DNA from: Escherichia phage a20 | Reading direction: 5' to 3' (one strand) | DNA: 64,000 bases | Sequence record: OQ067374.1 | Shown: positions 27,373 through 57,705 of the stretch, in pieces | Position numbering within the stretch: the stretch's first letter is position 1 | Layout of the letters: every line of letters begins with the position of its first letter | Position numbers and translations under genes: made by a program | Notes under the pieces: model-generated | What the model saw: the letters and a program-made list of their open reading frames with translations, nothing else | Told to the model about the DNA's origin: nothing | Database searches by the model: none

Positions 27373-27552
27373 TCACATAATCTCGTTAACATACATTTGC
27401 AATTCGGTGTGGGCATCAGCCATCTTTTTCATAGCTCTGTTAATGTCGATGTCTCCATCTTCGCAACCATGAGCATTTTCCCAATCAGATACCGCATTAG
27501 CGTACTCTTCAATCAAAAACATTAACTTAGAAATTTTTTCTTTACGTGTCAT
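27373..27552 (-). CDS. Hypothetical small protein (59 aa)
   Basis: ATG 27552 (MTRKEKISKLMFLIEEY) with SD GAGGAGAA; ORF-track TTG start lies inside the duplication. Confidence 0.5.
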   Translation of the reverse strand: MTRKEKISKLMFLIEEYANAVSDWENAHGCEDGDIDINRAMKKMADAHTELQMYVNEIM

Positions 27553-27756
27553 AACGTTCTCCTCTAGTAAGTAAGGTTTACTATAACACAACCTGAGGAG
27601 AAGTAAACTGATAGATGCCAAAAAGCCCCTACTCTTCAATCAAAAACATTAACTTAGAAATTTTTTCTTTACGTGTCATAACGTTCTCCTCTAGTAAGTA
27701 AGGTTTACTATAACACAACCTGAGGAGAAGTAAACTGATAGATGCCAAAAAGCCCC
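27503..27756. repeat. Perfect 127-bp tandem duplication (2 copies) of promoter/SD/5' gene-end/terminator-stub cassette
   Basis: 27503-27629 and 27630-27756 identical base for base on my reading; no flanking microhomology. Confidence 0.9.
27580..27608 (-). promoter_or_regulatory. T4-early-type promoter (GTTTAC-N17-TATAGT); second copy at 27707-27735
   Basis: Minus-strand GTTTACttctcctcaggttgtgtTATAGT; upstream arm TTCTCCTC complementary to downstream SD GAGGAGAA. Confidence 0.45.
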
Positions 27757-30872: not shown

Positions 30873-31331
30873 CTAGATTTTAATCACTGCTTTAGAAGCT
30901 TTTCCTGGTAGTCGTTTACTGTTAATAATAGCCATTCTGCATTGAAGAGTCTTCATTTTGAATGCCGGATTTTCGCGACAAACTGTAAGTCCCAACCAAA
31001 GATTTCCATCAGTTATTTCTAAACGGCCTGGACGGTATTCGACACCTTCGACAAAATCTTCATCAACATCTGGACGTGCCGGCATTGATAAAAATTCTGC
31101 AACTTCTTTAACATGATTTTTTACTTTACGAAATAATTCAAAAACGTAATTCTCATCTATTTCTCTCTGGATGGCACGATCTAAGAGATGTTGAGAATAC
31201 TTGATATGAAAGCCTGGTAGTCCAAGAGACTTTGCAGCATCTTTTATACTGGCATTTATTTTGCGGAACTCCGTTTCAAAGATTCGACGGAGTTTATTAC
31301 GGCGGATAAAAACGTCTGAATTGATAGTCAT
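30873..31331 (-). CDS. regB: Endoribonuclease RegB
   Basis: 152 aa, MTINSDVFIRRNKLRR...LQCRMAIINSKRLPGKASKAVIK matches T4 RegB. Confidence 0.9.
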   Translation of the reverse strand: MTINSDVFIRRNKLRRIFETEFRKINASIKDAAKSLGLPGFHIKYSQHLLDRAIQREIDENYVFELFRKVKNHVKEVAEFLSMPARPDVDEDFVEGVEYRPGRLEITDGNLWLGLTVCRENPAFKMKTLQCRMAIINSKRLPGKASKAVIKI

Positions 31332-31359
31332 TTTGATTTCTCCTCTAGTTGACAGGTCT

Positions 31360-34452: not shown

Positions 34453-34866
34453 TTAGTAAATTGATTTACCATAGTATTTGTACCAAGTCGGACGTTGAGC
34501 AATTTTTTCATCTAAGCGTGCTTGACTTATCGCAATGGACGCTTCGGACGGGACATAATTATTACGAAATTCGGCAGGGATGTCGGAAATATCCTGGACT
34601 GTCGTGTCCTTGATTTTGAAACCACGTTTCAAACATTCAGCGATTAGCTCGATTTGACGTAAACGTAAAAATTCGAGTTTGTCGTAAAAGAATGTTACGT
34701 GACCTGTGCCTAAGATAAATGTTGGAGAGATTTTAAAATCCTTTACACGTTTACCGTTTTGAACATGTTTACGGACTGCACCAAATACGCGTGGTAATTC
34801 ACGATACTCAGCCATAAGATGTTGGTCGGACAGTTCAGAAACAAGTGTTAAATTGATACGAGTCAT
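34453..34866 (-). CDS. denV: Endonuclease V (pyrimidine dimer DNA glycosylase) DenV
   Basis: [34 protein letters not shown]... matches T4 endo V; ATG 34866 with SD GGAGGAAA. Confidence 0.92.
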
Positions 34867-34893
34867 AATTTCCTCCAAGTAGTTGATGAATGT

Positions 34894-34922
34894 ATAGTAT
34901 CAAAGTCCTTGGAGGAAGTAAA
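34894..34922 (-). promoter_or_regulatory. T4-early-type promoter (GTTTAC-N17-TACTAT) nested in 10-bp inverted repeat that includes the denV SD
   Basis: Arms TTCCTCCAAG (34870-34879) / CTTGGAGGAA (34908-34917). Confidence 0.45.
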
Positions 34923-34924
34923 CA

Positions 34925-35206
34925 CTATTTTTCTGAAGCGCCTGAAATATATTTTTCAAGACGTTGTTTCATTAGCGAGCCGTTCTTAGCGATTTCTTCC
35001 GGTTTATCGCACATACGCAACAATGCTTCAAGCTTAACGATATCGCTGGTGCGCTCAAATTTGCGAGTGTCTATCTTACTAGCAAGTTCAGAAATACGTG
35101 CTAATAGACTTTCAGCTTCAACCAAAGCTGCACCTAGCTTAGTTGCAAATGTGTCAGTAGCTTCATTAAGAATAGATTCTGATAAAAATTCACTATATGT
35201 TTTCAT
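34925..35206 (-). CDS. Internal-protein-like ([11 protein letters not shown]-terminus)
   Basis: CTS-like start at ATG 35206; helical C-terminal region. Confidence 0.6.
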
Positions 35207-35691
35207 ATATACGCTTTCCAAGTTCCTGTTTTAAATGTTGAGATTACGCGTTTCGCGCGATTAGGTGTCTGACGATACCATTTAGATTGGGCGAGATTTA
35301 CTGCCGCCTCGTCCCAACGTTTCTGTTGAAGCATACGAAGAGAATTAGTAAAACCAGCGACGCCTGCTACACCCATTTGGAAGACCATATTGACCAATGC
35401 ACATCGACGAACCGCATCTAAAGAATCATATACCGGTTTAAGTTTAGCATTACCCAAGATTCCGCGAACGGCTTTATCAACGTCTTCATTAAATAGCTTT
35501 TCAGCCTCATCAAGGGTAATTGTACCGTTGCATTTACGACCGATCATTCTGTCAAGTTCAGCTTTAGCTACGGCTAAAGACGGATTCTTTGTTACTAAAT
35601 GGCCTATGCCAATCGTCCAAAAGCCTTCAGTGTCTTTGTATAAAGTCAGTCTAAGACCTTCGTCATTACGAAGCATTTCAAATATATTCAT
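35203..35691 (-). CDS. e: Endolysin (T4 lysozyme)
   Basis: [32 protein letters not shown]...; catalytic E11/D20/T26 context conserved. Confidence 0.95.
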
Positions 35692-40230: not shown

Positions 40231-40306
40231 TGGTCGAGACAGAAGGATTCTAACCTTCAACCTACGGATTAGAAGTCCGTTGCTCCATACAATTGAGCTA
40301 TGCCTC
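40231..40306 (-). tRNA. tRNA-Arg (anticodon UCU), CCA encoded
   Basis: Hand-folded cloverleaf: acceptor CGAGGCA/TGTCTCG, anticodon stem ACGGA/TCCGT, loop CTTCTAA, T-arm GAAGG-TTAGAAT-CCTTC. Confidence 0.8.
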
Positions 40307-40312
40307 GAATAT

Positions 40313-40386
40313 ATGACCCAGACCAGATTCGAACTGGTAACCTTTCCCTTATGAGGGGACTGCTGCTAACCATTGAGCTACAGGGC
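40313..40386 (-). tRNA. tRNA with anticodon CAU (Met or Ile2), CCA not encoded
   Basis: Hand-folded: T-arm ACCAG-TTCGAAT-CTGGT, anticodon loop CTCATAA, acceptor with one U-U mismatch and one G-U. Confidence 0.65.
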
Positions 40387-40448
40387 CTAAATAACTTTCT
40401 ATTATGAAAGGCACTTTAGAGCACCTTTGGTAATAGAGGGTACGAATT

Positions 40449-48069: not shown

Positions 48070-48585
48070 ATGGCACAAATACTTCCTTTAAATACCGACT
48101 TAGGAGAAGACATGGAAGGGGCGTCTATTGACGTCCTTTTTACTCCACAGTTAGAAACAACCGAAACTTTAGTGTCAATAAATATAACAGATTATGAACC
48201 GACACAAGGCATTACGGTAGATGGTAATCGTTTATATGGAACATATGAAAGTGTGTTTAGCTTTTCTTCGGACGCATTGAAATACCGATTAAATGACGAT
48301 TTTGAAACCGCATCTTCATGGGATGATTTACCAAAAGATGAGTCCACACAGTTATATTTGTGGAGAGCTCCTCAGAATCTTCGTAAAGTGTTTAGTTATA
48401 CGGTTGAAATGATTTATAACTACCAAGAAGAAAGTTCATCAGGCGGTTCTAGAAGTGACTCTGGTACAGAACCTCCACCGGCTCCAGTACAAAAAACTCT
48501 TACTAAGGTTTATACAAAAACTATAGTAGGAAATTGGAGCAAATGGGCTCATCAATTACGAAACTATGTTTATGTGAGGCCGTGA
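48070..48585 (+). CDS. 5.1: Hypothetical baseplate-associated protein (5.1 position)
   Basis: 171-aa ORF directly after gene 5. Confidence 0.6.
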
Positions 48586-55900: not shown

Positions 55901-57705
55901 TGAAACAAAATATTAAAATTGGTAACGTCGTTGATGACGGACAAGGCGATTACCTTCGTCGAGGTGGTGAAAAAATAAATGAGAACTTTGACGAAATCTA
56001 TTATGAATTAGGTGACGGTGAAGTTCCTTATGCCGCTGGCGCATGGAAGACTTATGATGCGGCTGATGGTCTTAATCTTAAGGCTGCTTGGGGTAAATCT
56101 TATGCAATTAATACTACTTCTGGACGAGTTTCGGTAAATCTTCCTAAAGGGACAATTGCAGACTATAATAAAGTTATTCGTGCCCGTGACGTATTTGCAA
56201 CTTGGAACATTAACCCTGTTACTTTAATTCCGGCAAACGGAGACACGATTAAAGGTTCTTCATCTCCGGTGGAAATTAACGTTCAGTTCTCTGATTTAGA
56301 ATTAGTTTATTGTGCTCCTGGACGTTGGGAATACATCAAGAACAAACAAATTGACAAAATAGTTAGCTCTGACATTAGTAACGTTGCTCGTAGAGAATAT
56401 CTGGTTGAAACCCAAGGTCAGACCGATTTCATGGATGTTTTTAACGGGACCTCTTATAATGTTAACAACATTCGCGTAAAACATCGTGGCAACGAATTGT
56501 ACTATGGTGATGTATTCAGTGATAATAGTGATTTTGGTTCTCCAGGCGCTAATCCTGGTGAACTGGTTGCACTCGATGGATTTAATATTAGATTACGCCA
56601 ACCGTGTAATGTTGGGGACACTGTACAAATTGAGACATTCCTAGATGGTGTTTCTCAGTGGCGTAGTTCATATACTCGTCGCCAAGTTCGCATTTTAGAT
56701 AGTAAATTGACTGCTAAAAAGTCTATTGATGGAAGTATTTACGTCACTGATTTGAGTACGTTCCGGTCTATTCCATTTACAGCATTTGGTATTAATCCTA
56801 CGGAACCACCTAACCCGAATTCTTTAGAAGTTCGCTTCAATGGTATTCTCCAAGAATTAGCTGGTACTGTTGGAACTCCTATTTTCCGTTGTGAAGGCGT
56901 GGATGCTGATTCTGAAGAGTCATGCGCTAATCTCGGTGGGACATGGACTCAATCGTATACAGATTACGCGATTGAATATACTGATAATATCCCTAGCGCA
57001 ATTCTGTTTGACCGTCAATTTGAAGACCAAGACATTATTACCATCACATGGTTTAATAACGATTTAGGAACTCTTCTTGAAATGGAAGAAATCCTTGATG
57101 TCGCTGATGAGAAATATGTTTCTCAAGGGTCTAACATTGAAATTACTGGTGACGTTGCATTAACCGATTTCGATAAAATTGGATGGCCTAATGTAGAACC
57201 TGTTCCTAAGTATGAACGTGAATTCTCGACTATCTCAGCAATATTTGATACAATTTATCCTGTCGGGACTATTTACGAAAATGCGGTTAACCCTAATAAT
57301 CCGGCAACTTATTTAGGTTTTGGTTTGTGGAAAATTTGGGGACAAGGCAAAGTATTAGCAGGTTGGAATGACGACGCATCCGATCCTAATTTTGCATTAA
57401 ATAATAATGACCTTGACGTCAATGGTAACCCTACTCATACCGCAGGTGGTACCGTTGGTGTAACAACCATCACATTAGAAAATGCTGATTTACCAGCTAC
57501 ACAAACCGATGAAAAGGTTCTTATTTCTGATGATAATGGTACAGTAATTATAGGCGGTTGCCAATATGACCCGGATGAAGAAGGTCCTATTTACACTAAA
57601 TATCGTGAAGACCATGCAAAGACTAATGGATCTCATGTTCCAGCGCGTTCTATAACTAATATTCAGCCATCTATAACTGTATACCGTTGGGTAAGGATTG
57701 CATAA
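55900..57705 (+). CDS. 10: Baseplate wedge / tail pin protein gp10
   Basis: 601 aa, T4 gp10 size and position. Confidence 0.9.

Follow-up and report, generated by a model that had tools for sequence, protein, structure and literature searches.

The phage T4 late genes e, soc, 49 and I-TevI (also segB, and mobE of phage Aeh1) carry their ribosome-binding site in a hairpin with a nested late promoter; translation proceeds from transcripts begun at that promoter but not from long transcripts begun upstream (PMC3014915, PMC2988022). A review states that the genes regulated in this way 'are all late genes' (PMC2988022), and e, soc, 49 and I-TevI are those listed (PMC3014915). A second type of element, the PeSL (Arbiol 2010; Comeau 2014), is composed of an AT-rich region, a sigma-70-like early promoter (TTTACW-N17-TAYWAT in T4 and PST), a stem-loop, a Shine-Dalgarno (SD) sequence and a start codon. 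PeSLs cluster in plastic early regions, where they are linked to indels; their stems, located within the promoter in RB49 and 'just upstream' of it in PST and T4, have been assigned roles in the termination or attenuation of transcription and in recombination (PMC2839356, PMC4122927). Pairing of the promoter spacer with the SD is absent from both PeSL papers, and the word 'translation' from that of 2010. Here we describe a 64,000-nucleotide stretch of Escherichia phage a20 (sequence record OQ067374.1; the window), in which the early genes denV and regB and a homologue of mobD.2a are each preceded by an early-type promoter lying in a hairpin whose 3' arm is the gene's own SD. With moderate confidence we propose that these hairpins act as promoter-specific translational gates in sense-strand RNA.

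The 4 kb around the locus are 97-99% identical to RB69 and other Mosigvirus phages, indicating that the window is RB69-like. By synteny with the RB69 record, the open reading frame (ORF) 34453-34866 is denV and 30873-31331 is regB, and the mobD.2a homologue is the 59-amino-acid ORF with its ATG at 27552; all three cassette genes are read from the minus strand. In each cassette the 5' arm begins immediately 3' of the -35 element GTTTAC, within the promoter spacer, a TAnnnT hexamer 16-17 nt past the -35 is located in the hairpin loop, and GGAG(G) stands in the 3' arm, 4-7 nt ahead of the ATG. Since the 5' arm occupies the promoter spacer, it lies upstream of every possible start of the nested promoter and is therefore absent from RNA made by that promoter. 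All three cassettes combine an intergenic sigma-70-like early promoter with a stem-loop, an SD and an ATG and thus have the make-up of a PeSL; denV and regB, as early genes with early-type nested promoters, fall outside the late-gene, late-promoter definition of the gene e type.

In the denV cassette (all positions minus strand), the upstream ORF, a homologue of RB69ORF127c, ends with the stop codon TAG at 34927-34925. It is followed by the -35 GTTTAC (34923-34918), the 5' arm TTCCTCCAAG in the 17-nt spacer (34917-34908), the -10 TACTAT in the hairpin loop (34899-34894), a predicted, motif-based +1 near 34887 and the 3' arm CTTGGAGGAA (34879-34870) with the SD GGAGG (34876-34872); the ATG is at 34866 and the ORF extends to 34453. 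The stem of 10 bp closes a loop of 28 nt. Folded from the -35, this RNA has a minimum free energy (MFE) of -17.8 kcal/mol (z -4.39 relative to dinucleotide shuffles), and folded from the predicted +1 it has -2.1; opening the segment from SD to AUG is predicted to require 12.0 kcal/mol in the long RNA versus 3.7 in the short one, a difference of 8.3. The regB cassette comprises the -35 GTTTAC (31388-31383), the 5' arm TTCTCCTCTAGTTG (31382-31369), the -10 TACTAT (31365-31360), a predicted +1 near 31353 and the 3' arm CAACTAGAGGAGAA (31351-31338), which contains GGAG (31343-31340) and precedes the ATG at 31331. Here 14 bp enclose a 17-nt loop, the MFE is -21.6 kcal/mol from the -35 (z -3.29, dinucleotide shuffles) and -2.5 from the predicted +1, and the opening energy is 17.8 kcal/mol in the long versus 4.6 in the short RNA, differing by 13.2.

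The mobD.2a-like cassette at 27.6 kb is present twice on the minus strand. Copy B, ahead of the full 59-amino-acid ORF, has its -35 GTTTAC at 27608-27603, the 5' arm TTCTCCTC at 27602-27595, the -10 TATAGT at 27585-27580 and the 3' arm GAGGAGAA at 27564-27557; copy A (27735-27684, arms 27729-27722 and 27691-27684) is identical, although its ATG at 27679 opens an ORF of 16 codons only. The stem of 8 bp spans a 30-nt loop and is weaker, with an MFE of -15.7 kcal/mol from the -35 (z only -1.35) and -2.0 from the predicted +1, and with SD-to-AUG opening energies of 11.4 and 5.9 kcal/mol in long and short RNA, about 5 apart. These coordinates bear out an earlier note on this DNA, which had located the upstream arm in the promoter spacer and the downstream arm at the gene's own SD in all three cassettes; the stem length of 8-12 bp that it gave holds for denV and the 27.6-kb cassette but falls short of the 14 bp in regB, and of the duplicated cassette it covered copy B only.

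Perfect 8-bp inverted repeats with loops of 15-50 nt are so frequent in the window (72 per strand) that a plain census does not discriminate, and a promoter-anchored test of spacer:SD pairing was used instead. Of the 16 unique early-type cassettes, three show perfect pairing of spacer and SD over 8 bp or more, against 0.0045 expected from 2000 spacer shuffles; per cassette, 0/2000, 0/2000 and 1/2000 shuffles reached such a helix. A chance match of pyrimidine-rich spacers to purine-rich SDs, which could draw on the abundance of 8-bp repeats in an AT-rich genome and on the z of -1.35 at 27.6 kb, is hard to reconcile with three observed cases and with the covariation across phages described below. 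We regard it as extremely unlikely in general, and for denV and regB the spacer shuffles and the covariation effectively refute it. In all three cassettes the probability that the SD is unpaired remains at or below 0.003 when 120 or 300 nt of upstream context are included. In most cassettes without SD pairing, the opening energies of long and short RNA differ by about 0.

The hairpin of gene e, which is also present in the window, served as a positive control (AATACCTCC 35719-35711 / GGAGGTATT 35700-35692, minus strand, with late-promoter-like TATAAA motifs and the ATG at 35691). It folds with an MFE of -16.3 kcal/mol (z -4.2), so that the stems of denV and regB are no weaker than a validated one, whose T4 orthologue reduces lysozyme synthesis about 100-fold (PMC3014915). 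None of the three cassette stems is followed by a T-tract (the sequences 3' of them are AAAUUAUG, AUCAAAAUG and CGUUAUG), and none scored as terminator-like in a scan limited to loops of up to 8 nt; the lack of a T-tract rules out that they are intrinsic terminators. The same scan revealed no convincing minus-strand terminator from e to denV (37392-34923) or from denV to regB (34453-31388), which makes read-through into both genes plausible. Membership in an Rfam family was likewise rejected, as the sole Rfam matches at gathering score in 10000-46000 are two tRNAs; these are adjacent minus-strand genes (40234-40387) and, judged by synteny with RB69, probably tRNA-Arg and tRNA-Met. Two further candidate cassettes, at 38.9 kb and 13.4 kb, performed no better than shuffles and are not claimed.

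To follow the pairing across T4-like phages, 80 denV and 16 regB loci from viral contigs were compared, together with the T4 record AF158101. T4 denV and regB share the promoter and hairpin architecture. Across lineages the GGAG/CUCC core is invariant, and the inner stem varies yet still pairs, as CAAG/CTTG, TGTAG/CTACA, CGTTTG/CAAACG or TGTG/CACA in denV and as TAGTTG/CAACTA, TTGACTG/CAGTTAA, TTTATG/CATAAA or TGTAAG/CTTACA in regB. As a MAFFT alignment of whole cassettes left the 3' arms out of register, 23 cassettes were anchored on the GGAG core only. In this alignment 75.7% of cells are paired, compared with 39-49% in slid registers, and covariation amounts to 0.380. Shuffles give 0.139 +/- 0.019 (0/500) and slid registers 0.05-0.12; GC, CG, UA and AU all occur at a single column pair.

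A second geometry occurs in denV cassettes of other phages (loci L006, L011-L013, L021-L023, L025, L027, L028, L034 and L035, at about 1440-1503), where the -10 and discriminator form the 5' arm and pair with the SD and often the AUG, for example as ATGATGTCTTCC/GGAGGACATCAT. These stems measure 10-12 bp, several with G·U pairs, and their 5' arm, too, precedes the predicted start site. In none of the 27 unique GTTTAC-type denV cassettes does the opening energy fall below 7.4 kcal/mol. In jumbo phages (345-378 kb; loci L024, L026, L030 and L032, at about 1430-1500), an intrinsic terminator stands ahead of denV instead, with the -35 TTGAC of the next promoter in its stem (AAAGGGTTGAC...GTCAGCCCTTTTT, then TATAAT), and in these four cassettes the SD is predicted to be open (2.8-5.7 kcal/mol). 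The closed SD of the GTTTAC type and the open SD of the jumbo phages suggest two alternative insulations, one translational and the other transcriptional.

A transition in a Watson-Crick pair yields G·U or A·C with equal chance, and sense RNA tolerates G·U only. The spacer-type set alone (G·U 6 versus A·C 2) does not discriminate. With T4 cassettes added and symmetric scoring, 20 internal G·U pairs face 4 A·C pairs (p = 8e-4), and the sense strand folds 3.4 kcal/mol better than the antisense strand (p = 3e-4, n = 29), although in both counts the cassettes are not all independent. The excess of G·U and the better sense folds favour selection on the mRNA strand. They argue against a palindrome acting at the DNA level, be it a hot spot of recombination or slippage or a quasi-palindrome kept by template switching, with no function in RNA. 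Such an origin would account for the perfect Watson-Crick stems of the window and for the association of PeSLs with indels and mini-circle formation (PMC2839356, PMC4122927), and one cassette does lie in a tandem duplication that is absent from the closest relatives. This duplication is exact and 127 nt long (27503-27629 = 27630-27756), and each repeat holds the whole promoter and hairpin cassette, the first 16 mobD.2a-like codons and, of a terminator-like hairpin, the 3' half. In the closest relatives this sequence is single (a query of 521 nt maps onto 394 nt), and recent slippage or an error of assembly may have produced the second copy. Its junctions fall outside the hairpin arms, however, and the identity of the 3' arm with the SD is meaningful in mRNA only, which leaves the DNA-level explanation very unlikely. 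The terminator-like hairpin itself is situated just upstream of copy A on the minus strand (AGCCCC 27774-27769 / GGGGCTTTTT 27756-27747; AGCCCC-N12-GGGGCT followed by TTTTT) and was missed by the terminator scan, as its loop is longer than 8 nt.

The sequences establish the anatomy of the cassettes, their non-randomness, the predicted energetics, the kept pairing and the strand asymmetry; we infer where transcription starts in a20, whether and how much read-through RNA is made, how translation responds and what biological purpose this serves. According to the gate model, a polymerase arriving from upstream would first copy the spacer with the 5' arm and reach the SD with the 3' arm about 30-45 nt further on. 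The arms would pair at once, and the resulting helix of 8-14 bp would block 30S binding, so that denV, regB and the mobD.2a-like gene would be poorly translated from polycistronic read-through RNA. The nested sigma-70-type early promoter, in contrast, would start 3' of the 5' arm and produce a leader of about 21 nt with an open SD. Each gene would then be translated mainly from its own immediate-early transcripts, and synthesis would stop at early-promoter shut-off although delayed-early, middle or late read-through RNA crosses the gene. The earlier note had predicted this masking in read-through RNA and release in promoter-initiated RNA. This prediction is supported in part: folding, covariation, the G·U bias and the nested promoters at most of the strongly sequestered SDs speak for it, whereas the translational effect is itself a prediction, the start sites derive from motifs, other early promoters lie in hairpins that leave the SD free and the fold at 27.6 kb is weak.

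The position of the upstream stop codon, 7-8 nt from the 5' arm in denV and 10-11 nt in regB, raises the question of translational coupling, in which ribosomes finishing the upstream ORF would melt the stem and permit translation of denV or regB on read-through RNA. A ribosome reaches about 11-13 nt 3' of its P site, so that termination at the upstream stop codon would melt no more than 1-3 pairs at the start of a 10-14 bp helix. Between this stop codon and the SD there are 40-50 nt, and the spacing looks set by the promoter rather than tuned for overlap; we therefore consider coupling quite improbable.

As a second likely consequence of the gate, the paired GGAG would be shielded from RegB cleavage in long RNAs. 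RegB recognition requires an unpaired GGA and an A-rich 3' context (PMC1702504), and the regB mRNA is a RegB target in T4 and RB69 (PMC3014915). In the window, the 3' context partly matches the RegB consensus GGAGRAYARAA (regB GGAGAAATCAA, denV GGAGGAAATTA), and the GGAG is predicted to be unpaired only in the short RNA. Shielding could even be the primary role, with the hairpin hiding intergenic GGAG in long polycistronic RNA and sparing downstream genes, and silencing being secondary; all 3' arms do contain GGAG. Yet the denV GGAG of T4 resists RegB through its 3' context and not through structure (PMC1702504), and the hairpin is kept all the same. Moreover, several stems of the -10 type extend over the AUG, which shielding does not need. 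A primarily protective role hence appears improbable to us, and it is compatible with a translational gate rather than exclusive of it.

The T4 genome offers a test of generality. Its 31 motif-defined early cassettes were folded as long and as short RNA, and those in which the long form closes the SD by 7 kcal/mol or more beyond the short form were selected. They number about ten, namely alt.-3, ndd.4, regB, nrdC.8, modB, 30.8, alc, e.8 and denV, plus gene 49 as a known late case. The predicted closure of the SD in read-through RNA amounts to 8-15 kcal/mol for alt.-3 (ATG at 123032 of AF158101), alc (136278), ndd.4 (166749), nrdC.8 (53885), modB (13130), 30.8 (130253) and e.8 (70623); alt.-3 and alc have paralogous cassettes that are almost identical (CCTCGTGTTGTGTTA / TAACATAACATGAGG). 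The denV and regB promoters of T4 are active early promoters, and regB output is tightly limited there (PMC1702504, PMC3014915).

On these grounds we tentatively suggest, as a possibility we would rate below even chances, that T4-type phages follow one rule in all three temporal classes, that of translating a gene only from its own promoter's transcripts, and that spacer or -10 sequences double as anti-SD in about one-third of early cassettes (in T4 those of regB, alc, modB, denV, alt.-3, nrdC.8, ndd.4, 30.8 and e.8). If so, such genes would be strictly immediate-early, independent of genomic context and shielded at their GGAG from RegB in polycistronic RNA; a translational layer would lie beneath the distinction between immediate-early and delayed-early, and mobile accessory genes would possess a plug-and-play insulator. 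Should the gate work as predicted, it would provide a post-transcriptional reason for the short-burst synthesis of some T4-type early proteins, nucleases and host-takeover enzymes such as RegB, Alc and ModB among them, despite the persistence of their coding sequences on long transcripts. A T4 transcriptome and proteome study found mRNA and protein to be decoupled and left the causes open (PMC9697503). As the same stems exist in T4, the gate is directly testable there. A promoter sequence that doubles as anti-SD would also lend itself to small, transferable insulators in synthetic operons and engineered phages.

Masking of the SD is one form of a wider feature, the promoter within a hairpin, which agrees with the published PeSL cassettes. 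About 11 of the 19 motif-defined early promoters in the window sit in a hairpin with its 5' arm in the spacer, and two types can be distinguished. In the SD type, formed by denV, regB and the duplicated mobD.2a-like cassette, the 3' arm is the SD. In the type named after the transcription start site (TSS), the 3' arm lies just past the -10 and the SD is left free (42236-42210, 41880-41851, 38068-38047, 27150-27119 and 22296-22269, minus strand). TSS-type hairpins are similar in strength to those of the SD type, and in most of them the predicted SD access is nearly equal in long and short RNA; the T4 ipII and ipIII hairpins also belong here. The TSS type may function as an attenuator, as a barrier at the 3' end of the upstream message or as an element of the PeSL kind. 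The motif TATAGTAGTCCTATCAA is common to several of these hairpins. The earlier note had seen the logic of gene e applied with early promoters; the anatomy is indeed the same in the SD type, but these five other early promoters are placed in hairpins that spare the SD.

It is here that a generic PeSL-type hairpin has to be considered, one that acts on upstream transcription or the upstream message as an attenuator, pause site, terminator or 3' barrier stabilizing the preceding cistron, with the SD overlap being incidental. About half of the promoter hairpins in the window (five) exclude the SD, as do ipII and ipIII of T4, and every hairpin starts a few nucleotides past the upstream stop codon. 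The stems, however, lack a T-tract and none is terminator-like, and the denV helix covers the SD in 27/27 unique GTTTAC-type cassettes by way of two geometries, which would be unexpected if the position of the arm were free. We judge this explanation unlikely. An untranslated gene on read-through RNA could moreover cause Rho-dependent polarity, in which case this function and the translational gate may be two sides of one insulator.

Several observations nevertheless weigh against the gate. The covariation mixes orthologues with paralogous cassettes that recombination can exchange, and the number of independent events is accordingly lower than the number of cells counted. The comparison of denV loci with and without a promoter is confounded by phylogeny and by uncertain start codons; many distant loci begin at a tblastn boundary instead of a verified start codon, and this comparison was therefore down-weighted. 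At 27.6 kb many shuffles fold as well as the cassette itself (z -1.35), and the terminator-like hairpin upstream of it would render SD masking there partly redundant. The five TSS-type hairpins imply at least one further role for promoter hairpins, and SD pairing might have arisen as a by-product of that role. Ribosomes that terminate 7-11 nt ahead of the 5' arm might melt part of the stem. A T4 denV mutant with a good RegB site was 'cut efficiently in vivo' (PMC1702504), which fits abundant short transcripts and is silent on long ones. Finally, each functional step in a20, that is, translation, start site and transcript, is predicted.

When 94 candidate gene starts in the window were ranked by SD-to-AUG opening energy (in kcal/mol), regB (19.0, early), gene e (17.4, late) and gene 1 (16.2, MotA-box-like) came out on top, followed by gene 55 (13.2, MotA box TGCTTTA), the gene 49 homologue (12.5, late) and denV (12.0, early), then by two plus-strand candidates at 57082 (11.9) and 25788 (11.8) and by the 27.6-kb cassette (10.6, early); a gp4-like ORF with a late promoter reached 9.2. 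The highest value of all, at 48543 (plus strand), was discarded as a false start within gene 5.4. In this ranking of predicted energies, strong SD sequestration mostly accompanies a promoter inside a hairpin, whatever the promoter class. In gene 1 (dNMP kinase, ATG 43682; 43728-43674, minus strand) a predicted hairpin TAGCTCCGTA/TATGGAGCTA buries the AUG, and in gene 55 (ATG 11103; 11177-11105, minus strand) a predicted hairpin AGTATCTC/GAGGTACT buries the SD. Both enclose apparent MotA-type middle promoters (CGCTTCTA or a TGCTTTA box, plus TATAAT) and, on the basis of single-sequence folds, may represent a middle-promoter version of the gate logic. Hairpins with a late promoter (TATAAATA) mask the SD of the gene 49 homologue (157 amino acids, ATG 16989; ACCCTTA/TAAGGGT, 17026-16995, minus strand) and of the gp4-like ORF (149 amino acids, ATG 45696; CTCCTT/AAGGAG, 45751-45703, minus strand). 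Two further strong and perfect inverted repeats were noticed, one of 11 bp with a 12-nt loop and an ATG directly 3' (ACGATAGGAAG/CTTCCTATCGT, 12358-12325) and one of 12 bp with an 11-nt loop (TCATCTTCACAG/CTGTGAAGATGA, 41148-41114).

Compared with the known systems, the early cassettes share with the T4 late-gene hairpins the pairing of SD and/or AUG with sequence 5' of the nested promoter's start, and the gene e and gene 49 versions themselves occur in this window. In the late genes a late, gp55-dependent promoter (TATAAATA) is nested, and translation is switched on late. Here, by contrast, the nested promoter is of an early sigma-70 type and its spacer or -10 region supplies the 5' arm, and the predicted timing is reversed, with translation on at once and off after promoter shut-off. 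PeSLs match in cassette make-up, and a 127-nt duplication occurs here, but the stems described here have no T-tracts; if the gate is real, PeSL cassettes would have to be reinterpreted as translational plus transcriptional insulators. RegB sites are alike in having GGAG, here in the 3' arms, with the difference that the hairpin would block cleavage and not mediate it. The terminator-promoter cassettes of jumbo phages similarly insulate denV and supply it with a dedicated promoter, but do so transcriptionally, by an intrinsic terminator stem that overlaps the -35, with the SD predicted to be open.

Stem-loops and PeSL cassettes as objects and the late-gene version were known already; what appears to be new is the early-promoter form of SD masking. 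Our literature searches retrieved no explicit earlier statement of it for early promoters, although Miller 2003 or Valerie 1986 may contain one; Valerie et al. 1986 reportedly noted potential stem-loops ahead of denV and orf61.9 (regB). Outside phages, Davis, Simons and Kleckner in 1985 and Schulz and Reznikoff in 1991 are said to have described 'fold-back inhibition' of transposase translation in read-through transcripts of IS10 and IS50. There, RNA entering from outside reportedly includes a stretch that is complementary to the translation initiation region, transcription from the element's own sigma-70 promoter begins within the hairpin and only its RNA is translated, which insulates the mobile gene. 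Whereas IS10 and IS50 are one-gene bacterial insertion sequences with no temporal programme, the hairpins described here involve many phage genes and three promoter classes.

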